A stretch of 64,000 bases of DNA, taken from the IMG/VR virus record IMGVR_UViG_3300044557_000292, positions 323,388 through 387,387 of that record; one strand, written 5' to 3'. Made by a program: the position numbers and the translations under genes. Origin of the DNA: a virus. Lineage: Duplodnaviria; Heunggongvirae; Uroviricota; Caudoviricetes. Shown here in pieces: positions 251 through 46,042 of the stretch; the stretch's first letter is position 1, and each line of letters begins with the position of its first letter. The notes under the pieces are model-generated. The model saw nothing but the letters and a program-made list of their open reading frames with translations, was not told where the DNA came from and did no database searches.

Positions 251-422
251 TCCAGATCACCAACCCGAATCTAATATCATTGCAAGATCTCTTATCAAGA
301 CTTTGTTAATCTATCGTCGAACGGAAGATAGGAGAACAAAGAACATCGCAATAAGAATCGTATTGTGATTAAAGACTTGTCTATTCCATGGGGAAGATGA
401 TCCTAATCATGTGGTCTCATAT

Positions 423-585
423 GGCTGAGATTCAACTATCATCAGAACGCAACAGTCTACTATGCTTCTGGTGATAGTCTGAACGGACATGTGCAGAAAG
501 GCTTCCTTGTGTATAACGTAACTTCCCGAGGGCTAAACCACTGTAGAATCGCGAGATCTCAATGCTTGCAATGCATCAATAATAA
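423..585. repeat. copy 1 of a ~160-bp conserved noncoding element; second copy at 45757..45915, direct orientation, ~80% identity
   Basis: Read-by-eye alignment agattcaactatcatcagaac...ttctgrtgata...tgtataacgtwacttcc...tagaatcrcgagatct; internal 11-bp inverted repeat tatcatcagaa/ttctgGtgata forms a hairpin. Confidence 0.6.
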
Positions 586-7557: not shown

Positions 7558-7618
7558 AGCTTACGTTGCTCCTCGTGTGGTGGACACAATCATGTTTACA
7601 TGATGCATCTAACGCGCT

Positions 7619-7837
7619 GGATGAACCCCCGCAACGCGGGGAATACCTGTCACCTTGAATGCTACTCGAGATCGTAGCACCGCGGGGATGAACCCCGCCT
7701 AGGCGGGGAATACGGGTGAGACTGGAATCGTTGTGATTGCTGGAGGTGGGTTCAACCCCGCAACGCGGGGAATACAGTGGGCTATTGAATGGTAGTGCTC
7801 ACATCTGTTGGGTTCAACCCCGCAACGCGGGGAATAC
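7619..7837 (-). CRISPR. small degenerate CRISPR array (4 repeats, 3 spacers); trailer side of the locus
   Basis: Repeats gatgaacccccgcaacgcggggaatac, gatgaaccccgcctaggcggggaatac and 2x ggttcaaccccgcaacgcggggaatac, with 33-35-nt spacers; the reverse complement GTATTCCCCGCGTTGCGGGGTTGAACC matches the type I-E repeat architecture. Confidence 0.8.
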
Positions 7838-7908
7838 GGCCTGTTCCACGGTCTTGTCAACATCTGTTGACATCATGATAGAGCTCATACTAAACGGTTA
7901 CGAGACGG

Positions 7909-8583
7909 TTACGGAGCGGTGCAATACTCCGTGTCTATGCTCGACAGCAGGGAGGCGTTCCTCGCGGTGAACGTCTTGGACATGGACACGACGCTGGATC
8001 TATTGGATCCACCCGAACGTGATCCGACGCTGACGTTGATCTTAAGATCATCGAAGAACCCGGACACGGTGCCTACAGTGCCACCATAGAAGACCCCGCT
8101 ACCAGCGTCAACGGAGCCACTGGAATCATCCGAGGACGAGACCATAGACGTGAGGATGATCTTACCCTCATCATAGTCCGAGTCCTTCGAGGCGTCCTTG
8201 GATCTACGGATCATCCTCATCGTCCCATTGGAACCATCACCGATGGAACCATCAGGATCCTTCACGACGGTCAGCGCCACACACCTGCCGACAGTGTCGG
8301 CACTTGTGGCGCTAGCGGAATCCGCCGACTCACTGGGAATCGCCATCACCACAGTCTGGTCACCATCAGAATCGGTGGTGATCCTGAACCCAGCCGCGGA
8401 TCTTGCGTCTCTCCCCACCATCTGCATGGCTGTACTCACCTGCGACGTCGCCTGTGATCTTATGGTGGCGGAGTAGTTCGCTCTCATCAGCTGGATGGCG
8501 CTGAGAGAGAAGAACGCCATGAAGATCGCCATCGCCACAAGAAGCTCCACGAGGGACGCACCATGCTCGCCCCTATGGATCAT
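7909..8583 (-). CDS. type IV pilin-like / pseudopilin protein (class III prepilin signal)
   Basis: N-terminus MIHRGEHG|ASLVELLVAMAIFMAFFSLSAIQLMRANYS has Gly at -1, Glu at +5 and a hydrophobic helix typical of prepilin-peptidase substrates. The tracked ORF extends to 8727, but the ATG at 8583 is the likely start. Confidence 0.6.
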   Translation of the reverse strand: MIHRGEHGASLVELLVAMAIFMAFFSLSAIQLMRANYSATIRSQATSQVSTAMQMVGRDARSAAGFRITTDSDGDQTVVMAIPSESADSASATSADTVGRCVALTVVKDPDGSIGDGSNGTMRMIRRSKDASKDSDYDEGKIILTSMVSSSDDSSGSVDAGSGVFYGGTVGTVSGFFDDLKINVSVGSRSGGSNRSSVVSMSKTFTARNASLLSSIDTEYCTAP

Positions 8584-8774
8584 GCCCACACCATTGCCTA
8601 CATGTCTGTCCACATTATTGTCTACACCGGTGTCTGCACCCATTCGAGCATGTCCGAGCGTCCGTCCATACGCATATGTCCTCATCTTAATCTTCATCCT
8701 ATTCCCCCGTGGATCTAGTGGCGTCAACGAGCATCGAAGTCGTATAGTAGCTTATGGTATCACCACGCGAGACG

Positions 8775-10105
8775 GGTTCAACCCCGCAACGCGGGGAATA
8801 CCATCACTGGAGCCATCACTGGAGCAATCACAGTCAGGTTCAACCCCGCAACGCGGGGAATACGCTGCCGCATTACTGACTTCACGACCGTGAACCAGGG
8901 TTCAACCCCGCAACGCGGGGAATACCACACCGTTTGCAGCGAAGCTGCCTACCGAATCTAGGTTCAACCCCGCAACGCGGGGAATACGGAACGCTCTCTC
9001 TTTACTCTCAAGACCCGTCGAAGGGTTCAACCCCGCAACGCGGGGAATACTGATCTTCGTCTTTCCGGACTCAGTTTTGGTCAGAGGTTCAACCCCGCAA
9101 CGCGGGGAATACGCATTGATCGTTCTTATTGCGTTGAGAATGATACAGGTTCAACCCCGCAACGCGGGGAATACTTGAAGCCGGAGCCGGCTCACAGGAA
9201 ACGAAGCCAGGTTCAACCCCGCAACGCGGGGAATACTTGAAGCCGGAGCCGGCTCACAGGAAACGAAGCCAGGTTCAACCCCGCAACGCGGGGAATACAG
9301 ACGGCGGGCTAATCCATGAGCCGGGTAAGCGCAGGTTCAACCCCGCAACGCGGGGAATACCAAGCGCTATAATCTGTATGATGCGAAGCATACTAAGGTT
9401 CAACCCCGCAACGCGGGGAATACGTCTGTCGCACGTTGTTCTGAGATGAAATCTCCAGGGTTCAACCCCGCAACGCGGGGAATACTTTGCGATCTAATTC
9501 GTCCGCTTCGTTTGTAGAAAGGTTCAACCCCGCAACGCGGGGAATACTTGTTTCAATAGGATTGGCTCAGATTCAACTATAAGGTTCAACCCCGCAACGC
9601 GGGGAATACTCGAATCAGAAGAGGAGATTGCTGAGATGGCAGAAGGTTCAACCCCGCAACGCGGGGAATACCTGCACACGAAGCCTGATCCAATACCACG
9701 CGTAGGGGTTCAACCCCGCAACGCGGGGAATACTGATTATTTTTGTCTTTCTGTTTAGTTATAATATAGGTTCAACCCCGCAACGCGGGGAATACCACGC
9801 CTGCGATCTGCCACACGGGCTAGCACTGAGGGTTCAACCCCGCAACGCGGGGAATACCCATTGAATTTCGACTTTCTTCAGATCGAGTCTAGGGTTCAAC
9901 CCCGCAACGCGGGGAATACTTCAGTGCGCTTGGGTACTAGCACAGGACGGTGAGGGTTCAACCCCGCAACGCGGGGAATACAGTTCATGTTCTTCGATGA
10001 TGAGTAGCCGAAGATGGGTTCAACCCCGCAACGCGGGGAATACGTCTAGTTGGTCAACGTTGTTCGTTGCTACTACAAGGTTCAACCCCGCAACGCGGGG
10101 AATAC
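8775..10105 (-). CRISPR. CRISPR array, type I-E-like repeat, 22 repeats and 21 spacers (period 62)
   Basis: Perfect repeats ggttcaaccccgcaacgcggggaatac, equivalent to GTATTCCCCGCGTTGCGGGGTTGAACC on the minus strand, with a stem CCCCGC/GCGGGG like I-E. Spacers are 34-35 nt; two adjacent spacers (9177-9210 and 9239-9272) are identical; degenerate repeats lie at the low-coordinate end, so transcription is from the minus strand. Confidence 0.95.
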
Positions 10106-10740: not shown

Positions 10741-11448
10741 TCAATCCCACATGTACGGGAGAACCTCACCTATCCATGCCCAAACCCTCTTGAATTCAGA
10801 CTCGACGCGCTTCTCGTAAGCTTGATCGCCAACGATGCCCAGCGTACGATCCTCATAGTCTTCAAGGGCGGTGTCGTTAAGGCGCGAGTACCTCCTGAAG
10901 ACCCTGGATGCATAATACAGATCCTGCGTCCAAGCTGCTCCATCAGCACCATACTCCTCAACGGTCTCATTAAGCTTATGATTAAAGTCTTTAGTGGATC
11001 CAATCTTTGACCAATCTATCGACACAATGCTGAACCGGTTCCATGGTGTCTTCAACCACTCTTCATAATCATCATCATGCTTGTTCAGCCAGTACCTGCG
11101 ACCATTATGAATGTTCGCGTCTCCATCATCTTGAATATAGAGGGGAGGATACCCGTGATCGGTTCTAGCCAGTTCAAGCATGAGCCTAGATAGCCTATCA
11201 ATCTCGCGATCACCAAGATCCCAAACATCATAATCGTCATACCCACGACGCGCCCTCTGGAACGTTCTCTTAACCCGGCCAGGAAGCTCACTCGCGTTCC
11301 TGTGAATGAACCCGTACGCTGTCTGCAATGGTGATGGAAGATGATCATACAGGGAATCACCGATATCCTCCAGCCCGTCCCTTAGACCATGATGCTCTTC
11401 ATCTTCATCATAAAGACTAGTTGTTATGTCCTGACCCTCACTACTCAT
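10741..11448 (-). CDS. hypothetical acidic protein
   Basis: 235-aa ORF, no recognisable motifs. Confidence 0.45.
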   Translation of the reverse strand: MSSEGQDITTSLYDEDEEHHGLRDGLEDIGDSLYDHLPSPLQTAYGFIHRNASELPGRVKRTFQRARRGYDDYDVWDLGDREIDRLSRLMLELARTDHGYPPLYIQDDGDANIHNGRRYWLNKHDDDYEEWLKTPWNRFSIVSIDWSKIGSTKDFNHKLNETVEEYGADGAAWTQDLYYASRVFRRYSRLNDTALEDYEDRTLGIVGDQAYEKRVESEFKRVWAWIGEVLPYMWD

Positions 11449-11486
11449 GATGCTAATCTCTCCTTAAAACCGTCCATCGTTAATAC

Positions 11487-13979
11487 CTATTCCCCGATAA
11501 GATCGAGGATAGCGTCAGAATCATCGGGATGGATCACCCTGACATCATCGCCCCCATCCTTGTCCACAGGAATCGTGAGCAGTGACAGCGCCTTGTCAAC
11601 AGTCATTGGCCTTGAGTAGATAGAGTTCTTGGCAATGGTTGCGAACACCGGCTCATTGCCGTCAACACGATTCAACGAGATGTTAGAACCAGCATCCACA
11701 TCAACCCAGGTGACCTCACCAGTAAGCAGGTCAAGAATGAACGGGGTAGAATTCGTGGACTCCCTCGTGAGACTCCACTTCAAAGCCACGTTCTTTGGAT
11801 CGAAGATCTCACCAGTCTGCTGGCCTAGTTCCGTCTTCAACATGACGCCAGCGCAAGCCTCGGGGATCTTGCTGAAGTGCTGCGCTGTGAATGAGTACAC
11901 GGATGGAATCATATACCTAACCTCAAGCGTATCGAGAGCGTATCTGACATTCACGTCAATGAACTCAGCAGCCCCGTCAGGAGCACTCGTAATGTCCCCA
12001 GAGTGGACAATACCTCTGCCCTCTCGAAGGTTCGTGTAAGATACCTGCCTACTATTCTTGAACCCCTCATCAAAGAACACGGTGCTCATGTCAAGATCAA
12101 CTCTGGAACCGTATTCTTGACTGTTAAGATCATGCCAGTGCATGAAGACACGGACAACAGGCTGTTCACCCCATCCTGGAATCTTGAACCTTGAGCCACG
12201 CCCAATGAGCTTCACGCCAGAACTTACCGACCCAACGCCCATGGGTACAACGTACCGTCCATCTGGAGAGGCAGACACGTCGAGGAACGTCTTCACGTTC
12301 TTACGCTTGTCCTTAAGAGCGGACTCGATGCCATTCATGATGAAACGGGCTTCATCAACCGTCACGTCGTTAACAATCGTGTTGTCAATGCTTGACGTCT
12401 TCTGTCCGTGAGGAGTCCTCATGATGACCATACGCTTGTCAAGATCATTGATACCATCTGACAGTCTCGTGTTCAAGAAACCCCAGAGCTGGATGAGGAC
12501 CCGGTTGCTCACATTCCTGGCCACACTATTGAACGCGGTGAGCACGATCCCATGATACTCCTCGGGGAGCTTGCGGAGCAACTCGACGAGACGACGGGCG
12601 AACACGCCAGGCCTACTCTTCAATTGTCCAACGATCTCATTGACGAGACGAGGATGATCGACCCCGTCTGATTCCTCCCGCAGATCACGAATCAAACCGT
12701 CAACGATCCCATCAAGAGATCTCGTGCCACCAGACTGCACCAAAGCCAGCCACGATCGTGCTGAATCCAATTCTGGGCTATGAGGCAGAACATTGCGAAC
12801 AAGCTCCTGGTAGTGAAGAGTAGTCGCAAGGCGCTTCCATTCCTCCTCGTAACGATGGAACTCGTCTGACAACTGGTCCTCATTAGGATTCTTCTTGAGG
12901 ATACGACCAAGCTCGAATAGGATGAGCTTCCTCTTCGACCTGTTTAGCTTGAACTTCACTGGTGCTGATAGGGAGGCGTCACCATCAGAAGACCAGAATG
13001 CGGCCAGTCTGAGCACATCAGTCACGCTATCGAGAAGATCCTCGTCAACATACTTTGAAACCTCGCCATGATTCCACGTCACGCATGGAAGAACAACGTT
13101 TAGATCAGATCCGTCCAACTCTCTGAGCAATGCGTACAGGAAGACGGCGTTCTCGTGGATCTTAGGCCATTCCGTGATGACTCCGACCGTTTCATCAAGG
13201 TGGAGTAGGGAGAACACGCCCCTGATGAACCACTTCTGATCATCAGACCACACCTGTGATGAAGATACCACATTCTTGAGAACATCAAGGACATCGTTCC
13301 TACTGATGATCCTAATAGCTGTCGGCTTTAACCCGTCAATGAGATGAATCCTAGGTGATGGAGTGTAATCATGCATGATGCGGACACCGATCCAATCACC
13401 GAGGTAATGCAGGAAGGCATTCCAGATTAGCTCTTCATCCGATGCTTCCGCCACCTGTTCTGGGAAGTCCGGGTACATTGGACGATAATCGTAAGCCGTT
13501 CCGCGCGATTCCTTAAGCACATCAAGAACAGAAGACAGCGTGCCGGCCGAAACACTGCCCAGGCGCTCGACGAGATCATCATAACCTACACCCGATTGAG
13601 AGCTGCCTGTGATCGCGTAGTTAAGAGATAAAGCATTAGCAATGAATGCAAGAACAGCGTGCGTTGAAGCGCCTTCAAGATCATCAATTGGGTACAGGAA
13701 TATCTCGTTATGATTAACGGTAAGGTACTCGTTCACCGCATTGAGGTTAGCCTTGTCCAGCCCACGCTTAAGTTCATGAATTCCACCATAGTTAACGGTA
13801 CTAGCATTATCGATCTGATTCTGGGGATCATTAATGTTATCATCACGCTTATCCTTAAGCGCTTTCAGACCACTTGCCGTTCCCCCTGTGGCCTTATTGA
13901 GCTCATCCAGGCCATCAAGACTGTCATCAGGACCGTGATCGTGGTTTCCAGTGAACTCATCCTTGCTTGCTACTCTCAT
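11487..13979 (-). CDS. large protein (830 aa) with C-terminal TerD-like domain
   Basis: C-terminal segment SRVDLDMSTVFFDEGFKNSRQVSYTNLREGRGIVHSGDITSAPDGAAEFIDVNVRYALDTLEVRYMIPSVYSF matches the TerD/CABP pattern (LDLDas...fyn.l...g.v.HsGDn.tG..gddE.i.vdL...ivf.v.iy). Confidence 0.55.
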   Translation of the reverse strand: MRVASKDEFTGNHDHGPDDSLDGLDELNKATGGTASGLKALKDKRDDNINDPQNQIDNASTVNYGGIHELKRGLDKANLNAVNEYLTVNHNEIFLYPIDDLEGASTHAVLAFIANALSLNYAITGSSQSGVGYDDLVERLGSVSAGTLSSVLDVLKESRGTAYDYRPMYPDFPEQVAEASDEELIWNAFLHYLGDWIGVRIMHDYTPSPRIHLIDGLKPTAIRIISRNDVLDVLKNVVSSSQVWSDDQKWFIRGVFSLLHLDETVGVITEWPKIHENAVFLYALLRELDGSDLNVVLPCVTWNHGEVSKYVDEDLLDSVTDVLRLAAFWSSDGDASLSAPVKFKLNRSKRKLILFELGRILKKNPNEDQLSDEFHRYEEEWKRLATTLHYQELVRNVLPHSPELDSARSWLALVQSGGTRSLDGIVDGLIRDLREESDGVDHPRLVNEIVGQLKSRPGVFARRLVELLRKLPEEYHGIVLTAFNSVARNVSNRVLIQLWGFLNTRLSDGINDLDKRMVIMRTPHGQKTSSIDNTIVNDVTVDEARFIMNGIESALKDKRKNVKTFLDVSASPDGRYVVPMGVGSVSSGVKLIGRGSRFKIPGWGEQPVVRVFMHWHDLNSQEYGSRVDLDMSTVFFDEGFKNSRQVSYTNLREGRGIVHSGDITSAPDGAAEFIDVNVRYALDTLEVRYMIPSVYSFTAQHFSKIPEACAGVMLKTELGQQTGEIFDPKNVALKWSLTRESTNSTPFILDLLTGEVTWVDVDAGSNISLNRVDGNEPVFATIAKNSIYSRPMTVDKALSLLTIPVDKDGGDDVRVIHPDDSDAILDLIGE

Positions 13980-19749: not shown

Positions 19750-19770
19750 AAGTCAATAGTAACAATAAGG

Positions 19771-19860
19771 GGTGAACACCGCAACGCGGGGAATACTCTT
19801 GAATGATCTCCCGTCACCAAGTTTGAATACAGGTTCAGACCCGCCTACACGGGGTTCACC
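19771..19860. CRISPR. solitary degenerate CRISPR-like unit (2 diverged repeats, 1 spacer-length insert)
   Basis: ggtgaacaccgcaacgcggggaatac, then a 34-nt insert, then ggttcagacccgcctacacggggttcacc; sits exactly between the topA stop (19861) and the PNK start (19749). Confidence 0.6.
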
Positions 19861-20949
19861 CTAACGCTTCCTTGAAACCCTTCCAGATGCGGGCTTCCTC
19901 CTCGCAGGATGATCTTTCTGATAATCATCCCATATTTCCTTAGCCCGATCAGGAGACAGCGCCCTGGGATCTTCCCCATCTGGAAGCGATATGAATACAG
20001 CACGACCACGCGGAGCATTCTTATGACCCAGCCACGCCCCCCTCTTCCCTATTCCAGTGAAGAACCCGTCACCGAGCTGTCGTGGTAGCTTCACCTCTGA
20101 GAACATCTGCTCAGCATCTTGAAGGGTCACCGTGTCCTCAGTGAGACCACCGTCCTTGGGAAGCGTCATGTTCACGGGCTTAGCGCTCTTCACTGGTGAA
20201 CCATCCTTATGGATCCTCACGGCCTGCACGTAAGAGCCATACTTACCATTCCTAGCCGTCACCTGCCATCCAGCATACGGGCCGTCCTTCAGTATCCCCA
20301 GGACACGATTCACGGGCGATTTTGCCTCATCTAGTAGCTTCCTGCACGCGCCCGGCGTGAGGGCGTCTTCATCTGTTAGAACGGAATCATCCAGCTTCAC
20401 GCTCTTCACGTACCCAGAATCATTCTTCTCCCCCGAGGGGTCTTCAAGCCACGCGCCAGACCTGTTCACCCTGACCACGTACCCGCCGTTGAGATGAACC
20501 TCCGACAGCGTGTTGATCTCATTCCAGTCAATATTCCTAGCGAGACCATTCACCCTGCCATCAATGCCGTCAGGAGCCTTCCACACGCCATCAAGGAAGT
20601 CATCCCTTGATAGCGATCCGTCACCGATCTTATCAAGATCTTCCTCCATGGATGCGGTGAACCCGTAGTCAACGTACCCCGGAATCTTATCCTCAAGAAT
20701 CTGGGCGACCTTCATGCCCGTCCATGTCGGCGCCATCGCCCTTCCCTTCTTCTGCACGTACCCGCGCTTCTGATTCACGGTCACGAGGTTAGCATACGTT
20801 GACGGTCTACCAATACCAAGTTCTTCCAACTTGGCCACAAGTTGCGGCTCTGTGAACCTTGCCGGAGGTGTAGTCGTGTGCATGGTCGAGGATGCTGTTG
20901 ACAACTCACATTCCTCCCCAACCTTGAACTCATGCGTATTCCTTGCCAT
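19861..20949 (-). CDS. topA: DNA topoisomerase I, C-terminal portion (downstream of the in-frame TAA)
   Basis: TPPARFTEPQLVAKLEELGIGRPSTYANLVTVNQKRGYV matches the conserved topo IA domain III/IV region. Confidence 0.75.
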   Translation of the reverse strand: MARNTHEFKVGEECELSTASSTMHTTTPPARFTEPQLVAKLEELGIGRPSTYANLVTVNQKRGYVQKKGRAMAPTWTGMKVAQILEDKIPGYVDYGFTASMEEDLDKIGDGSLSRDDFLDGVWKAPDGIDGRVNGLARNIDWNEINTLSEVHLNGGYVVRVNRSGAWLEDPSGEKNDSGYVKSVKLDDSVLTDEDALTPGACRKLLDEAKSPVNRVLGILKDGPYAGWQVTARNGKYGSYVQAVRIHKDGSPVKSAKPVNMTLPKDGGLTEDTVTLQDAEQMFSEVKLPRQLGDGFFTGIGKRGAWLGHKNAPRGRAVFISLPDGEDPRALSPDRAKEIWDDYQKDHPARRKPASGRVSRKR

Positions 20950-20967: not shown

Positions 20968-22389
20968 TTATTCTTCACCGTCATCATACACGGACAGGAA
21001 TCCCCTGTCATCTATCCTCGTACTACTCGTCGTGAACACGGCCTTACCGTCACTAGATGTAATCGTGATCTTTCGCGTGATCCCCCTCGCAGGGTTCATC
21101 TGGCTAGCCACGGTCCTCCTGTACACGAGATCATAGACCTCACCAGCCTTAGCGTCATATGAGGAAGATGCCGTCAGCCCCCTGATCTTCGCTGGATCAT
21201 AGAATATTCCCGTTGATTCCTCTACAACAGGACGGATGCACTCGTGACCCTCCTGAGCATTCTTAGACTTCGACTTGTATATGATCGGCTTTGATGGCAT
21301 CTGTCCACCGTACTGTTTACGGATAATACTCCTCGCCGCCCTCACGGCCTCATCTGCCATCGCTGGGCTGTCCGTCCTTGAGTATGTTTGATACGTGTGC
21401 TCGAAGAGCTGCTGGGCTATACTCATAGCCCTGCTGGCCGTGAGCCCAAGCATGGATCCAACATTCTGCTGGTATGATGACGTGGTGTACGGGGTTGGAG
21501 GATTCCTCTTATAGGGCTTCTCCGTAATGTCAGTGATACTGTACTTTTTTGACTTCAGGTCTTTTAGGATCTTCTTCACATTATCATCACTGAGGGTGAG
21601 CTTATCTGAGGATCCATCCTTCAGCATGCCGTCAGGACCGTAATCAGATCCCGATGCTATTCTACTCCCATCGTACTCCACGAGGCTAGCCGTCAATTCG
21701 GCTTCCGTCCCCCTGTTAAAAACAGCCTCAATGGATCCATATGACGCCTTCACGAAGCCTAGGCGATCCTTCTCCCTGTTCACGACGAGGCGCAGGGTGG
21801 GTGACTGCGCCCTGCCTCCAGACGTCCCAGACCCTACCGTCTTCCAAAGGTATGGGGAGATACTGAACCCGAAGAGACGATCATAGACCTGCCGGGCCTC
21901 TGCCGACTCGGCCTTCCGCACGTCTATACTAGCATATGACTCCAGACCGGCAAGCACTGCCCGCTTCGTGATCTCATGCCAACTCGCCCTGCGGACATCC
22001 ATGCCAGACTTCTTGAGATCTGATTCTAGCGACTGCACGACCTCGTATCCAATGAGCTCTCCCGCCTCGTCCGGATCAGTACTCACATAGAAATGCTTCC
22101 ACCTGCCAGACCTGACCTCAGATCTGATCTCACCCCACTGCTTACGATTCTGAGGGTCATGATCTAGGAGACGCTCATAACGCCCACTCCGCACGTCGAT
22201 CGAGTAATCGCCGTACCGTTCACGCTCTTGACTAGTGCTCTTCTTCGGGTCCTTGAGCTCGAACATGAAACCCTTCGTGGCCATGATCTTCCACCCGCTG
22301 CCAAGGAACCCAGTGATCTCCCTGGCCTTGGTAGGCGACTCAACGATCATGAGGCCGCCGTCACGCTGAATGTCTTCTATGATTGCCAT
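20968..22389 (-). CDS. topA: DNA topoisomerase I, N-terminal portion (TOPRIM plus domain II), ends at an in-frame TAA
   Basis: LMIVESPTKAREITGFLG TOPRIM motif; the stop (TAA at 20968-20970) is in the same frame as the downstream ORF and separated from its ATG by 18 nt. Confidence 0.75.
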   Translation of the reverse strand: MAIIEDIQRDGGLMIVESPTKAREITGFLGSGWKIMATKGFMFELKDPKKSTSQERERYGDYSIDVRSGRYERLLDHDPQNRKQWGEIRSEVRSGRWKHFYVSTDPDEAGELIGYEVVQSLESDLKKSGMDVRRASWHEITKRAVLAGLESYASIDVRKAESAEARQVYDRLFGFSISPYLWKTVGSGTSGGRAQSPTLRLVVNREKDRLGFVKASYGSIEAVFNRGTEAELTASLVEYDGSRIASGSDYGPDGMLKDGSSDKLTLSDDNVKKILKDLKSKKYSITDITEKPYKRNPPTPYTTSSYQQNVGSMLGLTASRAMSIAQQLFEHTYQTYSRTDSPAMADEAVRAARSIIRKQYGGQMPSKPIIYKSKSKNAQEGHECIRPVVEESTGIFYDPAKIRGLTASSSYDAKAGEVYDLVYRRTVASQMNPARGITRKITITSSDGKAVFTTSSTRIDDRGFLSVYDDGEE

Positions 22390-31297: not shown

Positions 31298-32701
31298 TCA
31301 CTCACCAGTATCAGATGCAGTTTCCTTTTCCGTGGCCGTCGTGCCTGCAGGCGTGTCGGCAGTCGCGGCCCCATCAGGATCAGGATTCTGGTGCGCTAGC
31401 TCTCTCAGAGACTTCGCGAGATCAACACCGGTGAGCGTGTTCACCAGTGTTGGCAACTTGGCAGCAAGATCGGTTACGAGACTAGATGTCCGATCCTGCG
31501 CGTCTGTACCAACCGAGGTGATGGTAGCGCCCTCAAGAGGCTTGCTCAGGGATGCGGCAAGCTCAGGCAGCTTCTCGATGATGAGTGACTGCAGGGCAGC
31601 CTGACCATACTTACGATAGGCCTCCGCCTTCTTGTTCATAGCCTCGGCCTCTGCAAGACCCTGTGCCCTCACAGCGTCAGCCTTGGCCTCACCCTGCGCT
31701 CTAATCGCCTCGGCCTCAGCGACAGCTCGCGCCTTCGTTGCGGCAGCCTCAGCATCAGCATTCTGACGGGTGACCTCGGCCTGGGCCTCAGCATCAGTCT
31801 TCCTCTTGTACTTCTCAGCGTCAGCCTTCGTGTTCACGTCAGACTCAAGACGAACCCTCTGCAGCTTGACGTTCTCAGCTTCGGCGAGAGCCTCGGCCTC
31901 AGCAATCTTCTTATTCTGTGCCTGCTGTTCGAGACTCTTCACGGCCTCAGCGTTCACATCAGCCTTACCGATGTCAGCCTTAATGCTTGCCTGTTGTAGA
32001 GCGAGATCCTTCTGACTCAGAGCGATCTCTCGATCAGCGGCGATCTGCGCTTGCTGGGCTTCCTGCTTAGCATTCGCCTCAGCAATCGTGGCGGCCTTCT
32101 TCACAGACGCTTCCTGAGGAGCACCAAGAGCATCAATATAACCAGTCTGGTCATTGATCTCCTGAATCTGGAGCGTATCCAGGGACAGCCCCTGAATGGT
32201 GATAGAGTCAGCGACCTCATCACGGACAGCCTTCGTGAACTCAAGACGATCAGAGAGAAGACTCTCGACCGTCATCCCGCCTACGATAGACCTCATCGAT
32301 CCCTCAATGATTTCCTTCACGTACGGCTCCATGATCTGTTCCTGCCGAGAGAACCTCTGGGCTGCCAGGCGGATGTCCTCATCGGTGTTATTCACCTTGA
32401 AGGTTGTAACGACCTTGAGGTGGATCTTGATCTTCTCCTTAGAGATGGCATCGCATTCAGTACTGATCTGATGCGACTTGAGGGAGATGCTCACCACCCT
32501 GTTGATGAAAGGCCAGACGAATCCTCCACGATTCTGGAGAACCCTGACCGCTCTGTTCCCATTATCATCTTTACCATTTGATCCAGAGATGACGTAGGCC
32601 TCGTTGATGGTCGGCGTCTTATACCGGCTCACCAGGAACCATACTAGCAAGATGACGATCAGTATGATTGCTCCTGCGCCTATAGGGGTCGAATAATCCA
32701 T
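31298..32701 (-). CDS. flotillin-like SPFH/band-7 protein
   Basis: N-terminal TM, SPFH domain, then a long Ala/Glu/Gln/Lys coiled-coil repeat region (AEANAKQEAQQAQIAADRE...). Confidence 0.85.
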   Translation of the reverse strand: MDYSTPIGAGAIILIVILLVWFLVSRYKTPTINEAYVISGSNGKDDNGNRAVRVLQNRGGFVWPFINRVVSISLKSHQISTECDAISKEKIKIHLKVVTTFKVNNTDEDIRLAAQRFSRQEQIMEPYVKEIIEGSMRSIVGGMTVESLLSDRLEFTKAVRDEVADSITIQGLSLDTLQIQEINDQTGYIDALGAPQEASVKKAATIAEANAKQEAQQAQIAADREIALSQKDLALQQASIKADIGKADVNAEAVKSLEQQAQNKKIAEAEALAEAENVKLQRVRLESDVNTKADAEKYKRKTDAEAQAEVTRQNADAEAAATKARAVAEAEAIRAQGEAKADAVRAQGLAEAEAMNKKAEAYRKYGQAALQSLIIEKLPELAASLSKPLEGATITSVGTDAQDRTSSLVTDLAAKLPTLVNTLTGVDLAKSLRELAHQNPDPDGAATADTPAGTTATEKETASDTGE

Positions 32702-36786: not shown

Positions 36787-38097
36787 CTACTTGACTTCCG
36801 AATCCTCAGATCCATCTGACGGCAATGTCCTATCAACCTTACTCGACAGAGTGTTAATGAGATCAGTTCTGGTATCATCGAGGATCTTGGATTCCATGAG
36901 CGTCTTATTCAGAAGATCAAGTTGCTTCTGCATTCTCTCGGTGGCATCATGATTGAACTCTACAGAATTCTTCTCAGCATCCTTGAACGCCTGATGGGCC
37001 GAGATGATCGTGTTCAGGGTGGCTTGCATGTTCTCAACGTTATCATGGAGGCTCTCCTGGATCTTATTCACACTGTCCACAGAGTCCTTAAGATTCACCG
37101 CGTTATCCATGTTAAGATTGACGGCGGCCGCGTCTGCCGTGAGTACAGCCTTACGAGCCGTTTCCTGGACGTAGATTCCATGGGCGAGTTGAACGGCGGA
37201 CTTGAGACGGATGACCGCCGTGTTCTTCGTGCTCTTGACCTGCTCGATCATCTTCCAATGCGTCTTCGCGAGGAGGTCAATAGAAGCAATGTACGTGGTC
37301 TGACCGGCAGCGATGTTGATGAGATCAGATCGTCTGCGTTCTAGGGTGTTCAGTACCTCAGACTCAAGAGCTTCCTTAATCTCGGGATCAGCATTGAACT
37401 TGCCGCTTGATAATTCCGTCCTCAACTGTTCGATGATCTTACCAGCCAAGGACGCTTGTTGCGTGGCGGCCTCAACGCACTTCAACGCCCTGACGCGATC
37501 TTCCTTATATACCGCAATGTCACTCCTGAGCGAGAATTCATACTTGGTGAGCGTCTTCATGCAATCCTCAATGACTGCACCAGCCTTGCGGGTCTTATTG
37601 AAGAAGCTGCGCACTGGGTCATATACCGCTCGAAGGAGCTTGTTCTCCGGGCGATGGAGGATCTTCCTAGCATCAATGTCATTCATCGCGTTAGACATCT
37701 TGGTGAGCGTCTTGCCAATGTTCTTATTGGCTTCAGATCCCCTGCCAAGCTCTCCCATCGATATGTCAAACTGAGACTTGTTACTGATATCTGGGAGGAG
37801 ATCTTTAATAGCATCCTCACCGAAGTTCTCATACTTCTCGTGGAGATCATAGATCTTCGAGAATTTCTGTGAATCTTTAGCGTCATGCGACTTGATGACG
37901 TTGAAGGTATCACCAGAGATAAGACTTGAATCCATGAACTTCTTGTGCCCGGAGACAGCATTAGCAACAGCCTTCTTAGCAGCCTCAACATCATTCCTCG
38001 TATCTGACTCTAACTGCGGGGCTGCCGCGACCCCCGCCGAAATTGATCCATCATCCATACTAACCATTCTCCTTATAGCATCGTTATGATTGGCCAT
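36787..38097 (-). CDS. coiled-coil protein, possibly TelA-like (toxic anion resistance family), tentative
   Basis: 436 aa, all-helical composition; segment YENFGEDAIKDLLPDISNKSQ...MGELGRGSEANKNIG loosely resembles the TelA N-terminal FG...S..S...GE.G pattern. Confidence 0.35.
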   Translation of the reverse strand: MANHNDAIRRMVSMDDGSISAGVAAAPQLESDTRNDVEAAKKAVANAVSGHKKFMDSSLISGDTFNVIKSHDAKDSQKFSKIYDLHEKYENFGEDAIKDLLPDISNKSQFDISMGELGRGSEANKNIGKTLTKMSNAMNDIDARKILHRPENKLLRAVYDPVRSFFNKTRKAGAVIEDCMKTLTKYEFSLRSDIAVYKEDRVRALKCVEAATQQASLAGKIIEQLRTELSSGKFNADPEIKEALESEVLNTLERRRSDLINIAAGQTTYIASIDLLAKTHWKMIEQVKSTKNTAVIRLKSAVQLAHGIYVQETARKAVLTADAAAVNLNMDNAVNLKDSVDSVNKIQESLHDNVENMQATLNTIISAHQAFKDAEKNSVEFNHDATERMQKQLDLLNKTLMESKILDDTRTDLINTLSSKVDRTLPSDGSEDSEVK

Positions 38098-38165
38098 GAA
38101 TACATTATAACAACAGATGACCTAACAATGCAATTCGCAGGACGAGGAGATGATTCTATCATACT

Positions 38166-38801
38166 TCAGAATATCTGCCAGTAATGGATGAGTACAGCGA
38201 CGATAAGCGCAGCGAGAATGACGATGGCAGCGAGTAGCGATTCTAACCCGATCGTGAACTTGTACACCCCTGCATGATGCTCTGACTCCCCCAGAGCCCA
38301 CTGCCTCCACGTTCCGAATGCAAGCAGTACTGTCCCCAGATCCATGGTGAGGCACCACGGGCACATAGCACCAATCACGAATACTGACTGCTGGAGGAGC
38401 CATGTGGAGAAGATGAACGCAATGACCACGCCAATCCTGAACCCCCATTCCACCCATCGCGGGATGCTCACCCCGCTCGCGACCAGCACGCCTATCGTAA
38501 CGAAGACGGAGAACACGATGAGACCAAGGAACGCATTGGGAACTGCCCCGTTACCAGGCCAGTGAATCAGGGTAGACTGCCATGACTCTGCAACCGTTGA
38601 GCATGACAGTTTAGCATTCACGTCGCATGCGAAGATCGTTTTCGGGTTCAACGCCCTCCAATACGCTTCCAGTGATAGCATGAGAGATGCAAGCAGACCA
38701 AGAACTGATCCGATGGTAATTAACACTCCAGACCATATCTGGCTCGATCGTACCCTGAATATCCCGTTAATCATGTCTTCTTCCTGTTCTAGTAGATTCA
38801 A
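38166..38801 (-). CDS. VKOR (vitamin K epoxide reductase) family membrane oxidoreductase
   Basis: Loop Cys pair CDVNAKLSC, TM CxxC (MCPWC), about 5 TM helices. Confidence 0.6.
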   Translation of the reverse strand: MNLLEQEEDMINGIFRVRSSQIWSGVLITIGSVLGLLASLMLSLEAYWRALNPKTIFACDVNAKLSCSTVAESWQSTLIHWPGNGAVPNAFLGLIVFSVFVTIGVLVASGVSIPRWVEWGFRIGVVIAFIFSTWLLQQSVFVIGAMCPWCLTMDLGTVLLAFGTWRQWALGESEHHAGVYKFTIGLESLLAAIVILAALIVAVLIHYWQIF

Positions 38802-39891: not shown

Positions 39892-40860
39892 TCAGTCCTC
39901 GTAATCATCCTCATCTTCGTAATCATCCTCGTAGTCATCATCATAATTCAAGGAGATGTCCTGCGTTGGATTCCTCGTGACGTTCAGAACCTCGTACTTG
40001 CAGACACGGAGCTTCTGGTACGCGGAGTCTACGGGGACGGAAACCACGTCGCCCGCGCTGAACGCGACGGTGAGGACGTAACCGTTCCCCCAGCTGTTAG
40101 CGTAATCCCACGTGCCAATGTGAAGACCAGGTGCGCATCCATTATTCGGATCATCGGTCACCTTGCTCTTTGGCATGGCGATAATCGACCCGATCTTATT
40201 CGGGATGTACCCATTGACCTCACGGAACTCCTTCTCGCCCTTCTCCTTCACAAGACCAAGACCTGACCTCTTTGAGAAGGGAACGCCGTCCATATCCTGC
40301 ACGCCCTTGTACCCAACGACACGACCATCATCAAGGAGCGTGAACCCATTCGTGCTATCATCCTCGAAGTTAGACTTCAACCATGAGAACAACTGGTCAC
40401 GAACATACTTCGTGTTATTCGAGTAGAGATCGTTCACGAATCTGAGAAGAGCTGTCCAGTTGCGATCAGAACCATCCGGGTCATCGGCCTCCGTGTGGAG
40501 GATGCGGAGGATCTCACGCTCGAGTACCTGGTCGATGGGCTCCCCGTCCATGAAGATCCTCTCGCCGCACCTCGTGAGCCTGTCATTGAGACCAAGAGAT
40601 TCAAGATGACCGGAGATCTTCTCCTCAACGATGGATGCGGCAGCCGTCGCGTTCAAGATGAGGTCGGCAAGATCCTCGGGGCTGCTCCCGTCCTCTATGG
40701 CTGATACGATCCCATCGAATACTGCCGTATCGCTAGATCCCCTCTGGATGCTGAACGTCTTCAGGGTGCCATCATCAAGTCTAATGATGCCATGAAGCTC
40801 GTCGTAATGCCCTTCCAGAACGTTATTGTTACCGCTAAGACTGGTGACTGTAGCCATCAT
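39892..40860 (-). CDS. hypothetical protein with acidic DDYEDDYEDEDDYED tail
   Basis: 322-aa ORF. Confidence 0.45.
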   Translation of the reverse strand: MMATVTSLSGNNNVLEGHYDELHGIIRLDDGTLKTFSIQRGSSDTAVFDGIVSAIEDGSSPEDLADLILNATAAASIVEEKISGHLESLGLNDRLTRCGERIFMDGEPIDQVLEREILRILHTEADDPDGSDRNWTALLRFVNDLYSNNTKYVRDQLFSWLKSNFEDDSTNGFTLLDDGRVVGYKGVQDMDGVPFSKRSGLGLVKEKGEKEFREVNGYIPNKIGSIIAMPKSKVTDDPNNGCAPGLHIGTWDYANSWGNGYVLTVAFSAGDVVSVPVDSAYQKLRVCKYEVLNVTRNPTQDISLNYDDDYEDDYEDEDDYED

Positions 40861-41001: not shown

Positions 41002-43842
41002 TCACTCTGCCTTGTACCCGAGCTTGTCGACCTCATCCCACGCCTTGTCCTCATACTGCTTGAACCATGACAGGGCCGCGGTCAGAATCGAAGACTCTCC
41101 TCCCTTCTTGACAGCAATCCTCGGAGAGTCATCCCTCCATGAGTAGCTGAAAATCCTAAGGAAGAATACGAGATCAGGGTTAGTACGATCAATGTCGTCA
41201 ATGATCTTAGTCAACTCCCAGTGATAAAGAGCAGTCCTGACAGCACCCCTAATCAACTTGTCCTCGGTATTCTTCCATATCATATCCGCGATTCCGAGAA
41301 TATCGTCAGGCGCACTGGCAATGTTGAAGATCTTCCGCATGAGACTAGCATAATCATCAGACTTGTCCTCGTAGTCGCGATCATCCTCAATTGAGATTAC
41401 CTCATCGATCACGCCCAACGAAGAACCGTACGAGAAGATCCTAGGATCAGACAACGCGTCCACGATAGTATCGCGCCAAGTGTCAGGATGCCCGCAGATC
41501 ACGTCATCCCTGAATTTGGCGGATGATTCAGCGTATGGCACTGATTGAGCTGTCTTCATGGACTTGAAGCGCCTGATTCTACCAGTCACGCTGTCACTGA
41601 TGAAGATCTTGTCATACCCGGTCAAGGGCTCAAGATCAGCAGCCTTGATCTTAGCGATATCAGAGATGACTACGATATCGTGACCGTTGAACACGTCTGG
41701 GTTCTCGACCATTCTCCTGAAGATTCCAATCATCGAGTTGAAGGAATTACTGTAAGAGAAGAAGACGATGCTGCCGCCACGCACGAGATCTTTGAACGTG
41801 ACCTCTTCCACCGCCTTGAGATCATTCCTCCTCAACAGGTTCATGGCCCGCTCCTCCACTCCGAGGCCACCGTTCCCCTCAACAAGAGCAGGGACTCGCG
41901 TCTTCACAACAGCAGGAGTGGTCTTCTTCACCACCGACTTCTTCACGATGAGATCGTCAGCATCAACGACGCCCATCCACTTGACGCCAGCATCAATGGC
42001 CGCATCCCTGAACCCGTCGAAATGACCGTCTGGATATGATCCATTAGCAATGCAGCAGTAAATCTGGCACGCATTGTCATTATCGTCATAATTCTCGCGG
42101 ATCCAATTCCTCAGTCTACCGAACGATTTAGACCCGTCAAAGCCCCCAGTGACGACCAAGGCCTTGACTGCCTTAGCGCGATAATTCCTCGGGATATGAT
42201 GGAACGCGGACTTCATCCAGTCGATCGGAACCTTCAACACGCCCGATGTCAGGTATGATCCACCCTCCTTCCTTACCACAGATGACACCTTCGATAGGTT
42301 AAAAGTAAGGGCCTTGGCACGAAGACGCGCCTCGTAGTCCATATCATCATTCAATACGGAGTTCAGGCTCGATATGGATCCATCAGCGAACTCATACTTG
42401 ACGTAATTGTGATCGTCGTCACTCTTCTCGTTATGGGCTAGTGGAACCCCGTATCCAATCGTAGATGCTATCGACGGCCGCTTCTCGGAAAGATAATACG
42501 GGGTCACGGTGAGATTAAGAACCGTATCAAATGACTCCACGATCTTATCATGATCATGCACGGCGACCTCGTCAGGCCAGATCTCGCGCAGCCTATCAAG
42601 AATAGAGGAGGCGACCTTCTCGTCATCAAGATCAACGATATTTTCAATAATGATTGACCTATCGGAAACGGGAACATTCCCCCATATTCTTGATATTGAC
42701 CTCCCGTCGAGAGGATGACTCTTATTCGAGTTGAGCGGAAGGTCAAGCCCACTATTGACTGCCGCGATAAGACTCTTGAACCTGTCGTTACGCTTGATCT
42801 CATCACGAGACGGAGGGAAGTCGACCACGCCAGGCTGGATCTCCAGGAGGAATCGGGTAGACCCAACAGAATTAAGATTATACTTCCATCCCATGAGCGA
42901 TATTGACACGTAGCGTTCGGCGAAAGATCCATCAGACCAGTACCAGTTAGTATTAATACTAGCCGAGAGCCAACTGGAGAAAGCACTGCCAATGTTCTCA
43001 CTGCCACCATAGACATTACCGCGGTTAACATAAAGCTTACCGTTGATCGGCTTCCCATCGCTGTCCATAGCGACTGGAATGTCTATGAGATGCGTCCACG
43101 CCTTATCAAAGTCCGCGGAAGCAGGTTTACCGTCAATACTCAGCGGAATATCGGGGGTAGCGTATCTCGCGTACTGGCTAATGACGGTATTGAACTTCTC
43201 AACGTCCTCAGGGCGAACTGGAATCTCGACCCGCGTCCCATTAGGCTCGTCCGTGCTGCCATCGAAGATCGTCTCGGCCTCATTCACGTGCTCACCACGA
43301 TTCAGGGTGAGCACGATCTTACGCCCATCCCTCACGGTGGACACCACGCACGTTGTCGTATAGGCGAGCGGGGCCTTAGCGCCAAGACCCTTGCTTCCAG
43401 TAGCGCCCATGTCGTTGATCTTGGTGGAATTACCATAATCGGCGAAGTTCGCGTAGATCTGGCTCCTCGTCATGCCCACGCCGTGATCCTCAACAATGAA
43501 CGTCGGGCTGAATGAGGACGGCGGGTGAATGTCAACGTTGGGGGCATCAACCCCCTCATTCCTCGCGAGGATGGTAGCATCAATAGCGTTAGACACGGTC
43601 TCCCTGATCGATGCTGATATTGGATCTGAGTAGAGGTCAGTGAGCTGTTGAATGATCATCTGCAGGACATCACCGCTGATCGTCATGGTGTGCTTGCTCA
43701 CTGACTCCCCGATGAAGCTCACCGTCTTGTGACCAGTGACGGCCTCATTGCTCTTAGAGAGCGTGGTAAGCTGGCTAGCTTCCTGTTCCATAAGTTGACG
43801 ACTCCCATCTGTTCGTTTCCGGATAGCTCTATCATAACACAA
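41002..43842 (-). CDS. GHKL-superfamily ATPase, Hsp90-like N-terminal domain (946 aa)
   Basis: N-box IRETVSNAIDAT (ExxxNxxDA), G1 IVEDHGVGMT, G2 GATGSKGLGAKA; the flanking sequence QQLTDLYSDPISASIRETVSNAIDA parallels Hsp90 [27 protein letters not shown]. Confidence 0.6.
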   Translation of the reverse strand: MCYDRAIRKRTDGSRQLMEQEASQLTTLSKSNEAVTGHKTVSFIGESVSKHTMTISGDVLQMIIQQLTDLYSDPISASIRETVSNAIDATILARNEGVDAPNVDIHPPSSFSPTFIVEDHGVGMTRSQIYANFADYGNSTKINDMGATGSKGLGAKAPLAYTTTCVVSTVRDGRKIVLTLNRGEHVNEAETIFDGSTDEPNGTRVEIPVRPEDVEKFNTVISQYARYATPDIPLSIDGKPASADFDKAWTHLIDIPVAMDSDGKPINGKLYVNRGNVYGGSENIGSAFSSWLSASINTNWYWSDGSFAERYVSISLMGWKYNLNSVGSTRFLLEIQPGVVDFPPSRDEIKRNDRFKSLIAAVNSGLDLPLNSNKSHPLDGRSISRIWGNVPVSDRSIIIENIVDLDDEKVASSILDRLREIWPDEVAVHDHDKIVESFDTVLNLTVTPYYLSEKRPSIASTIGYGVPLAHNEKSDDDHNYVKYEFADGSISSLNSVLNDDMDYEARLRAKALTFNLSKVSSVVRKEGGSYLTSGVLKVPIDWMKSAFHHIPRNYRAKAVKALVVTGGFDGSKSFGRLRNWIRENYDDNDNACQIYCCIANGSYPDGHFDGFRDAAIDAGVKWMGVVDADDLIVKKSVVKKTTPAVVKTRVPALVEGNGGLGVEERAMNLLRRNDLKAVEEVTFKDLVRGGSIVFFSYSNSFNSMIGIFRRMVENPDVFNGHDIVVISDIAKIKAADLEPLTGYDKIFISDSVTGRIRRFKSMKTAQSVPYAESSAKFRDDVICGHPDTWRDTIVDALSDPRIFSYGSSLGVIDEVISIEDDRDYEDKSDDYASLMRKIFNIASAPDDILGIADMIWKNTEDKLIRGAVRTALYHWELTKIIDDIDRTNPDLVFFLRIFSYSWRDDSPRIAVKKGGESSILTAALSWFKQYEDKAWDEVDKLGYKAE

Positions 43843-44215: not shown

Positions 44216-44809
44216 ATGTCAAACACATCATCTAGCCCGTTAGGACTCAATAAGAAGTCTTCAATCATCGGATCAATCGTGATTGTGGTCATCGTAGTCA
44301 TCATAGGATTCTTCCTGGCCGCCCAGGGCGCTAAGAACTCTGCCATCAAGCAGGAGAATCTCATTGATCGTGAACAGGCGAACGTTCAGACCATCGTGCA
44401 GAAGCGTGTTGACGCCCTCACCGAGATGATCAACACGGTCAAAGCGTCCTCAAAATTTGAGCAGGACACGCTCACCAAGCTGACCGACGCGCGGAGTAAG
44501 GCCGCCGAGGGCGACATCGAGGGCAGTGCTACCATCTTGAGGGCGACCGCGGAGGCGTACCCCGAGTTGAAGAGCATCGACCTGTACTCGCAGGTGAACC
44601 AGGAGACCGTGACTGTTGAGAATCAATTGTCTAATGAACGTCAGGCGTATAACACGTCTGTCCGTGACTATAAGAATAAGACGCAGACCTTCCCGAACAG
44701 CTCACTATTATCCATAGCCGGGTACACTCCCAAGGACTACAAGCTGTTCACAGCGTCGTCAAGCGCGCAGAGTTATGACCCGTCAACAAGTAATCTTTGG
44801 AATGACTGA
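44216..44809 (+). CDS. lemA: LemA family protein
   Basis: N-terminal TM plus LemA signature (...AYPELKS...QLSNERQAYNTSVRDYKNKTQTFPNS). Confidence 0.8.
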   Translation: MSNTSSSPLGLNKKSSIIGSIVIVVIVVIIGFFLAAQGAKNSAIKQENLIDREQANVQTIVQKRVDALTEMINTVKASSKFEQDTLTKLTDARSKAAEGDIEGSATILRATAEAYPELKSIDLYSQVNQETVTVENQLSNERQAYNTSVRDYKNKTQTFPNSSLLSIAGYTPKDYKLFTASSSAQSYDPSTSNLWND

Positions 44810-45694: not shown

Positions 45695-45756
45695 CAGCAA
45701 TGATGACAGTCGCCAAATCATCCTAAAGATAGGAATCTGGCGATGACTATAGCCCG

Positions 45757-45915: not shown

Positions 45916-46042
45916 CGTCCTAGGAGAACGTGAAGGTTTGGGTCATGACCCTACAAGAACCACGGATCATTTGAATCTTATGATGCCTTGCGTTACTATG
46001 ATTCCTGTTACGAGAGAATGAAAAAGGAAAGCGTGCTACATC

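Follow-up and report, generated by a model that had tools for sequence, protein, structure and literature searches.

The antiterminator RNAs of lambda (nutL and nutR) and HK022 (putL and putR) exist in two or more non-identical copies per genome and have no linked coding partner, and the intergenic RNase III hairpins of T7-type phages are multi-copy, co-oriented with transcription, and leave a protective 3' structure. REP, ERIC and Correia/MITE sequences (MITE, miniature inverted-repeat transposable element) are imperfect palindromic intergenic repeats of 100-150 nt that occur in either orientation. To our knowledge, what has been learned of huge phages concerns their proteins almost exclusively, and functional elements in their noncoding DNA are essentially uncharted. 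Here we describe a repeated intergenic element from a 64,000-nucleotide stretch of a huge phage (positions 323,388 to 387,387 of IMG/VR virus record IMGVR_UViG_3300044557_000292), referred to below, at its full length, as the window. The element is selected, folded, noncoding and multi-copy, with two covarying helices, conserved unpaired motifs and no constant gene downstream. Its two copies in the window are probably old paralogues of a structured noncoding RNA family, about 136-165 nt in length, that belongs to a clade of huge rIIA/rIIB phages and would be a CRISPR target in relatives.

The element behaves most like the orphan structured phage RNAs that have come out of comparative genomics, such as GOLLD, ROOL and the members of a 2023 catalogue (PMC10690425). 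Like them it is phage-borne, covaries and has no single gene partner, and in two related contigs (L038 and L043) it likewise lies within kilobase-scale noncoding regions. It differs in being much smaller (136-165 nt), in carrying a repeated 5' box and in having no match in Rfam 15. By comparison with Rfam 15, the family appears to be previously undescribed. Its compensatory evolution, its multiple copies and the absence of an Rfam counterpart or a fixed gene partner make it a concrete new candidate among phage RNAs.

PeSL cassettes, known from T4-type phages (PMC2839356, PMC4122927), consist of a consensus sigma-70 early promoter and a terminator stem-loop, and number about 50 per genome (PMC2839356). 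They resemble the element in being repeated intergenic stem-loops placed after stop codons in phages of the rIIA/rIIB type, and in one relative (L036) a strong promoter abuts the element. A stem-loop follows a stop codon in three of the phages studied here, and no T-run follows the stem-loop in the window. However, the element has no such promoter on its own strand, is longer and multi-helix, and occurs twice in 64 kb, with copies that are old and have diverged; the internal consensus sigma-70 promoter that defines a PeSL is missing.

Likeness to the put and nut sites is by analogy only, as a multi-copy folded phage RNA, and does not extend to any demonstrated similarity of sequence or structure. 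Moreover, the element does not lie just downstream of identified promoters, and copy 1 is antisense to its neighbours. Unlike the T7-type hairpins, it combines a repeated box with a closing helix and with unpaired motifs that are conserved, and its stem is only 12-18 bp. Compared with the REP, ERIC and Correia repeats, its copies are few, old, syntenic across deep divergence and compensatory in their changes, and they show no target-site duplications.

A folded, multi-copy noncoding element

A repeat search of the window returns a direct two-copy repeat, 428-559 and 45759-45890, at 78% ungapped identity. Column identity in a MAFFT alignment is also 78%, a pairwise identity matrix gives 76%, and similarity extends over about 418-565 and 45747-45893. 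The first-pass annotation of this DNA had described two copies of about 160 bp and about 80% identity in direct orientation; the repeat is real and direct, though the identity is 78% and the 3' ends given for it (585 and 45915) lie about 20 nt too far out. Three conserved sub-blocks of 16-21 nt occur exactly twice each in the window, where shuffles lead one to expect 0.00-0.12 occurrences, and a covariance-model scan of the window with filters off finds no third copy. As had been annotated, both copies are intergenic and their flanking genes run in opposite senses: the - strand carries both neighbours of copy 1, the + strand both neighbours of copy 2. Copy 2 lies 62 nt past the stop codon of a 271-aa gene (44879-45694) and 150 nt ahead of a 197-aa gene (46043-46636). 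Between the copies are found rIIA and rIIB, a split topA, genes for IF3 and a clamp-loader subunit, and a CRISPR array. The attL and attR sites of an integrated element are ruled out as an identity for the repeats, which are only 78% identical and separated by 45 kb of core phage genes in the same order as in relatives.

As read on the + strand, the element consists of a 5' box, a hairpin (P2), a purine-rich motif, a variable middle, a second box and the 3' strand that closes the outer helix, P1 (Table 1). The 5' box has the consensus GGCT-S-AGA-W-TC. P2 starts 3 nt after it, is 12-18 bp long in the different copies and usually has CUACU in its loop, and P1 is a closing helix of 5-7 bp whose 3' strand pairs with the 5' box. 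The stem of P2 was originally given as 11 bp, perfect in copy 2 and with a wobble in copy 1. Both observations hold (the wobble is T442.G471, the one U.G pair of the copy 1 stem), but the hairpin is in fact 12 bp, the outermost pair of copy 2 being C.A. A short motif upstream of the box has counterparts in copy 2 (CTATAGC), L036 and the spacer 9548-9581 (CAATAGG), L043 (GGATAGG) and L038 (CAATAGC); it is not universal, since L034, the second L038 copy and L041 lack it.

Every copy repeats the 5' box just ahead of the P1 3' strand, and in L038, L041 and L043 the repeat is almost letter for letter (GGCTAAGAATCG); this recurrence may permit an alternative local pairing in some copies. The purine-rich motif may, tentatively, form a small hairpin, P3, whose stem (read by eye) varies by copy between GCT/AGC, GCGC/GCGC and GGC/GCC. 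A further tentative hairpin, P4, enclosing GTATAACGTTACTTCC, is confined to the group of copies that includes the window and is not conserved in the group formed by L038, L041 and L043; copy 1 and copy 2 differ in it by one exchange of G-C for A-U.

Table 1. Positions in the window of the two element copies, their predicted parts, the CRISPR array and the spacers that resemble the element
Feature	Position	Strand	Remarks
Upstream motif CATATGG	418-424	+	Read from sequences and alignments
Element, copy 1	426-561	+	136 nt, P1 5' strand to P1 3' strand; covariance model (CM) R2, 145 bits
Copy 1 P1, 5' strand TGAGATT	426-432	+	Within conserved 5' box GGCTGAGATTC; pairs with 555-561
Copy 1 hairpin P2	Arms 436-447/466-477, loop 448-465	+	12 bp; conserved CTACT in loop
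Copy 1 purine-rich motif CAGAAAGGC	491-502	+	GGAAAAGC in most copies; conserved in 9 of 9 copies
Copy 1 hairpin P4 (tentative)	504-532 (504-509/527-532)	+	Encloses GTATAACGTAACTTCC
Copy 1 second box AGAATC	545-550	+	Followed by P1 3' strand
Copy 1 P1, 3' strand GATCTCA	555-561	+	
CRISPR array, phage-borne	7607-10105 (7607-7837 and 8762-10105)	-	28-nt repeat; 22 spacers analysed
Spacer	9113-9146		21.7 bits, 0 of 660 shuffles; P2 3' arm and following junction, reverse orientation
Spacer	9548-9581		15.7 bits, 0 of 660 shuffles; upstream motif and 5' box (CAATAGG..GGCTCAGATTCAACTAT)
Spacer (borderline)	9858-9891		10.7 bits, 4 of 660 shuffles; 5' box, L034-like (TTCAGATCGAGTCTA; TTCAGATCGAG)
Element, copy 2	45757-45892	+	136 nt; CM R2, 153 bits
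Copy 2 P1, 5' strand TCAGATT	45757-45763	+	Pairs with 45886-45892, one mismatch
Copy 2 hairpin P2	Arms 45767-45778/45797-45808	+	11 bp perfect, outermost pair C.A
Copy 2 P1, 3' strand GATCTTG	45886-45892	+	

The family comprises nine copies from seven sources and five kinds of locus, scoring 49-153 bits, and seven of these copies come from six related phage contigs. The closest relative, a sister phage (L008), shares the copy 1 locus. It encodes the one relative found for the 285-aa protein next to copy 1 (86% identical), and its syntenic spacer carries an element 84.6% identical to that of the window. For the adjacent gene, overall identity is 83.4%, falling to 67% at third codon positions, and outside the element the spacers cannot be aligned except for about 60 nt ahead of the next gene. 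Because identity is kept at 84.6% in the element while the rest of the L008 spacer is unalignable, the comparison indicates that the element itself is under purifying selection.

Two further contigs, L034 and L036, were reached through their rIIA homologues, and a profile search places the element in both right after a homologue of the 271-aa gene and on the same strand, as at copy 2, even though the proteins are only 52-60% identical. In these three phages the element lies 15-62 nt past the stop of the 271-274-aa gene. A covariance model brought up copies in L043 and L038. A second model, built from seven sequences, then recovered two copies outside its training set, L038:20957-21119 (77 bits) and L041:16000-16161 (49 bits), both of them upstream of topA. 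Pairwise identity between the two main groups of copies is 38-45%, and the two L038 copies are 70% identical to each other.

The element was not recognised after the homologue of the 271-aa gene in L045 (the phage encoding P0051, 51% identical), or within 10 kb of rIIA in a distant 697-kb phage (a 22-kb stretch). Exact-pattern scans for blocks of the element gave no homologue in IMG/VR, where the 23 loci returned matched the seed only, nothing in GTDB genomes, and in JGI metagenomes only two chance matches inside a coding region; blastn gave no element match among GenBank phages.

The distribution of copies bears on the idea that the element is a selfish, MITE-like repeat with the 7-bp complementarity of its ends serving as terminal inverted repeats. 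In favour of this, the element is short, intergenic and multi-copy, has complementary ends, occurs in either orientation to genes, and is missing from a related phage, L045, downstream of the homologous gene. We nonetheless regard this as very improbable. Copies within one genome are only 70-78% identical and number two in 64 kb, neither window copy is bounded by target-site duplications, the complementary ends amount to the 5-7 nt of P1, and no transposase lies nearby. Moreover, position is kept between phages whose 271-aa proteins have drifted to 52-60% identity, and the internal stems covary, which points to selection on the fold.

Pairing was assessed on two alignments: A9, made by MAFFT from sequence alone with the two helices written in, and A10, which contains the nine copies, was fitted to the model and so leans towards it. 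In A9, standard pairs fill 87% of cells, compared with 75% when the letters of the 3' strands are shuffled (0 of 500 shuffles as high), and only 32-42% of cells pair when the partners are slid by 1-3 columns, which is the more reliable of the two controls; a further count gives 88%, 73% and 32-43%. Changes on both sides are seen at 10 of 19 pairs in A9. In A10 compensatory pairs make up 10 of 13 in P2 and 2 of 6 in P1, and RNAalifold, run independently on this alignment, returns both P1 and P2 with a favourable covariation term. The 5' and 3' arms of P2 read TATCATCAGAA and TTCTGATGATA in copy 2, TAGGCTCAGAACACGACT and AGTCGTGTTCTGAGCCTA in L036, and ATTGCCTCGAGA and TCTCGAGGCAAT in L038. In P1 the 5' box (AGATT or AGAAT) is paired with the 3' end (GATCT, or GTTCT or ATTCT), and the helix shows one exchange of U-A for A-U and one of G-C for C-G.

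The first-pass annotation had argued, from one wobble in two copies, for a structured RNA as opposed to a protein-coding or purely DNA-level signal. That basis was too thin, yet the homologues support the conclusion drawn from it, since P2 pairing is kept across all nine copies. The element is noncoding, conserved relative to neighbouring DNA and compensatory at 10 of 13 P2 pairs; that its functional form is RNA and not a DNA hairpin is favoured by strand evidence that is only moderate.

A small protein or pseudogene is ruled out by stops that interrupt every reading frame in at least one copy and by a lack of codon periodicity, the 35 substitutions in the aligned core falling 11/11/13 over the codon phases. 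With compensatory changes and no coding signal, the element has the general marks of a structured noncoding element, and attempts to place it in a known class were negative. None of the 4227 models of Rfam 15 reached its gathering threshold in the window or in L034, L036, L038 and L043. A relaxed search of both copies (E up to 10) returned only sub-threshold snoRNA, miRNA, lncRNA and frameshift-element matches of 10-21 bits, which are at chance level and none of which covers the whole element on its own strand. ARAGORN detected no tRNA or tmRNA in the window or in seven related loci.

A riboswitch or other cis-regulatory leader is excluded because no particular gene lies downstream. The genes found there are the 197-aa open reading frame (ORF), rIIA, the convergent 285-aa gene, topA (at 170-680 nt) and a 134-aa gene (at about 600 nt). 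A CRISPR repeat, or a solitary repeat unit of the RNA anti-CRISPR type, was also rejected: on the - strand the box stretch GTTGAATC resembles the 3' end of the CRISPR repeat, GTTGAACC, but the likeness covers only 7-8 nt, is not conserved in L034, L036 and L043, and does not place the element in the resident repeat families. Likewise dismissed were a tracrRNA or anti-repeat (only 6 complementary nt, not conserved) and a hammerhead-like core, whose CUGAUGA sits in a P2 arm and is not conserved in L034, L036 and L043.

Strand and setting of the putative RNA

Several observations touch on which strand is functional. On the + strand the two helices contain 11 G.U cells and 4 A.C cells, and at four of the five locus types the element points the same way as the adjacent genes, the exception being the locus of copy 1 and L008. 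For copy 1, copy 2 and L008, folding z-scores lie between -1.9 and -2.3 for the + strand, against -0.1 to -1.6 for the - strand; in L034 and L036 the - strand scores slightly better. Taken together, the + strand is weakly favoured by these data, and an RNA copied from it is the likely functional form.

Signals around the element differ from locus to locus. In L034 a terminator-like hairpin with a T-run directly follows the element, and in L036 a sigma-70-like promoter (11/12) starts at its 3' end. By these two features the element stands at the end of a transcription unit in several phages and is not a leader of the gene that follows. A promoter-like site near copy 2, weaker (8/12 in our own reading), is found at 45971-45999, between the element and the next gene, and promoter-like sites for the copy itself occur only on the opposite strand, at chance level. 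A sigma-70 promoter just upstream of the element was ruled out, as there is no consistent -35/-10 pair.

This setting would also fit a cis-acting intercistronic RNA module, working solely on the transcript of which it is part, such as a processing site with an RNase III-type cut in the long hairpin, a 3'-end protector, or a factor-dependent terminator, insulator or antiterminator. The RNase III sites of T7 and the put and nut RNAs of HK022 and lambda are modules of this sort. In three phages the element shares the strand of the 271-274-aa gene and directly follows its stop, 15-62 nt away; a terminator-like hairpin comes after it in L034 and a promoter in L036; it is multi-copy within genomes and runs with the genes in four of five locus types; and its stem is long, at 12-18 bp. 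That said, copy 1 and the L008 copy are antisense to both neighbours, the L038 and L043 elements lie midway in 1.5-1.8 kb of noncoding DNA, far from gene ends, and no U-tract follows P2 or P1 in the window copies. Nor would a simple cleavage or terminator hairpin need a closing helix, a repeated box and single-stranded motifs. We therefore hold a cis-acting module to be possible and distinctly less probable than a structured RNA family that acts as its own domain.

Spacers of the phage array and a proposed role of the element

Huge phages carry CRISPR arrays with spacers that target other phages (PMC7162821). The array in the window has no recognised cas gene beside it; its neighbour region (10741-13979) holds an 830-aa ORF that is RING_SCO0854-like and a 235-aa ORF without a match. 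Read on the - strand, its 28-nt repeat resembles those of type I-E, and the strand of the array was assigned from that resemblance. The array is interrupted by an ORF (7909-8727) with a pseudopilin-type N-terminal methylation motif and contains one duplicated spacer (9175-9208, equal to 9237-9270), and a solitary degenerate repeat lies 9.7 kb away, at 19757-19796.

A position-specific profile was derived from the nine-copy alignment, and both strands of all 22 spacers were scored with it, with 660 shuffled spacers as control, the highest of which reached 15.5 bits; nhmmer gave no match with such short spacers. Two spacers score above every shuffle and a third is borderline (Table 1), so that 2-3 of the 22 map to a family whose two copies make up about 0.4% of the window. 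The remaining spacers show no likeness beyond noise to the window or to 200 kb of relatives. Spacer 9113-9146 agrees with the L034 element (about 9822-9855) at 23 of 34 positions, with matching runs of 6 and 8 nt. Spacer 9548-9581 contains the 17-nt GGCTCAGATTCAACTAT, which matches copy 1 at 16 of 17, and carries CAATAGG, the motif upstream of the L036 copy. Its match to the window (17/18) is the best of any spacer, the others reaching at most 15/18, and is equalled by 1 of 88 shuffled spacers. The 16-of-17 match had been recognised at first pass and holds at copy 1; the spacer, however, occupies 9548-9581 and not the 9534-9568 assigned to it. For the borderline spacer 9858-9891 the best window match is again at copy 1, and the element positions at which it and 9548-9581 end are no more than 1 nt apart, as expected if the same protospacer-adjacent motif were used on two variants.

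A divergent version of the element in a competitor genome had been proposed as the CRISPR target. The profile scores support that proposal and extend it from one spacer to two, with a third borderline. The putative link between the array and the element family is plausible and statistically supported. Self-targeting is unlikely because the spacers and the resident copies disagree over half of their length.

The clustering of spacers, together with the shape of the element, could also be explained at the level of DNA. A hairpin with palindromic boxes (AGATCT, AACGTT) might act as a replication or priming signal or as a recombination module, with spacers accumulating there through DNA ends or stalled forks. 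CRISPR adaptation is biased to DNA ends, and 2-3 of 22 spacers could reflect such an acquisition hot spot. Compensatory changes suit a DNA hairpin as well as an RNA one, several conserved blocks are palindromic, the element lies inside nested inverted repeats in L038 and L043, assemblies of the same phage break within it, and PeSLs, stem-loop cassettes repeated between genes, offer a precedent, as recombination in T4-type phages is mediated by them (PMC2839356). On the other hand, the excess of G.U over A.C points to one strand, the element is co-oriented with transcription at most loci, and a small hairpin with a conserved single-stranded purine motif is typical of RNA. The internal sigma-70 promoter of PeSLs is missing, and the paralogues are old (76-78% identical) and have not been homogenised, which argues against frequent recombination between them. 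On this evidence we judge a DNA-level role unlikely.

A family of structured RNAs thus stays the preferred account, and the following picture would go with it. The element would be transcribed in the direction of the neighbouring genes and fold as an autonomous RNA domain. Our preferred guess is a small RNA that is stable and either has a start of its own or is cut from a read-through transcript, with the single-stranded motifs (the purine motif above all) and the repeated box binding a phage or host protein. Being constrained and multi-copy, versions of the element in related phages would make durable CRISPR targets, and this constraint would explain why spacers against them persist. The array would hold 2-3 spacers made from such versions, from which the resident copies escape, and these spacers would serve to exclude competing relatives. 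Going further, the element might be an indispensable multi-copy RNA of the clade, for instance the RNA component of a ribonucleoprotein of the phage, or a switch whose 3' strand alternates between pairing with the 5' box and pairing with the internal duplicate of that box, and be sampled by spacers repeatedly as it is hard to mutate; this stronger version is speculative and seems to us rather doubtful.

Several points weigh against the RNA family and its link to the spacers. The shuffle counts for the helices overstate their significance, because the nine sequences come from few lineages and share ancestry, and P3 and P4 are weakly supported. The compensatory changes would preserve a DNA hairpin equally well. 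Six of the 11 G.U cells belong to one terminal P1 pair, so the G.U excess is partly inherited, and L034, with a probable two-base bulge in its stem, accounts for three of the four A.C cells. Copy 1 and the L008 copy would need a promoter of their own, as they are antisense to both neighbours, and no sigma-70-like site was found for copy 1. No terminator follows either window copy, there being no T-run or U-tract after P1 or P2. The RNA itself is inferred, and its role as a protein-binding small RNA is a guess. Finally, searches of IMG/VR, GenBank phages (one chance match, E = 0.4) and the fetched relatives gave no full protospacer, and so the spacer link rests on partial similarity (17/18 and 23/34) and the presumed targets are versions of the element in unsampled phages.

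If the link is true, virus-encoded CRISPR arrays aim at constrained noncoding loci of competitors, and the element would be a handle for linking competing phages in metagenomes. On the stronger and rather doubtful version, it would also be the first conserved noncoding RNA locus seen as a recurrent target of such an array, and a preferred weak point in phage-against-phage conflict.

The phage and its wider sequence context

The window is a piece of a huge phage genome with its own CRISPR array, and not of a cell. This is clear from rIIA (41002-43842) and rIIB (39892-40860), from a T4-type RNA ligase/polynucleotide kinase gene (54535-56055), all found by PHROG and Pfam searches, and from the nearest rIIA relatives, which are contigs of 290-491 kb with the same gene order as the window. 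Records of the 285-aa protein flanking copy 1 include a contig as long as 419,707 bp. Other window genes encode a dNMP kinase, NrdEI, IF3, a clamp-loader subunit and a CCA/poly(A) polymerase, and many ORFs have no PHROG or Pfam match. Scans of GTDB genomes, GenBank phages and IMG/VR did not find the phage lineage, and GTDB genomes hold no relative of the CCA-enzyme protein of the window.

Two LemA-family genes are present, at 44216-44809 and 60330-60878; the former, with the 271-aa gene (phrog_3886), is a conserved pair ahead of copy 2 and of the L034 and L036 homologues. Genes of TelA-like, VKOR-family and SPFH/flotillin-like type (36787-38801 and 31298-32701) lie in a block whose order is kept in all the related huge phages fetched. 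Topoisomerase I is divided between two - strand ORFs, 19861-20949 and 20968-22389, the second with its own Shine-Dalgarno sequence and ATG. The same split is found in L036 and L037, and topA is apparently unsplit (>900 aa) in L038 and L043. An alternative genetic code is ruled out as the cause, since none of the three stop codons goes unused and a ribosome-binding site precedes the second half.

In other samples, contigs of the same phage (L003, L007, L046 and L047) break inside the element, as expected from assemblers stopping at a repeat; the breaks fall at window positions 501 and 45771 and at the termini of L046 and L047. The one difference between L046 and the window is a C-to-T change in the P2 loop (window position 45781).

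The noncoding regions around the element homologues of L043 (1383-2862) and L038 (3452-5287) are gene-free stretches of 1.5-1.8 kb made of nested inverted repeats, with the element near the centre. Their arms measure 39-48 nt (87-100% complementary) and 120 nt (79%), and there are also 94-nt direct repeats. Neither Rfam nor tRNA searches gave a match in these regions, which could be large structured RNAs or replication or recombination regions.

A second family of noncoding repeats, of about 61 nt and 74-95% identity, is present in the window at 53706-53766 and 54431-54491 on the + strand and, inverted, at 57010-57071 and 57349-57410. The repeats bracket a helix-turn-helix gene, the RNA ligase/polynucleotide kinase gene and an ORF at 56135-56893. 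Their core, ATATGCTTCCCCGTGTTACACGG, is similar to the 39-48-nt inverted repeats (GTATTGCTTCCGCACTTACGGGT) around the element homologue in L038 and L043, and includes a TGCTT that may recall a T4 MotA box.

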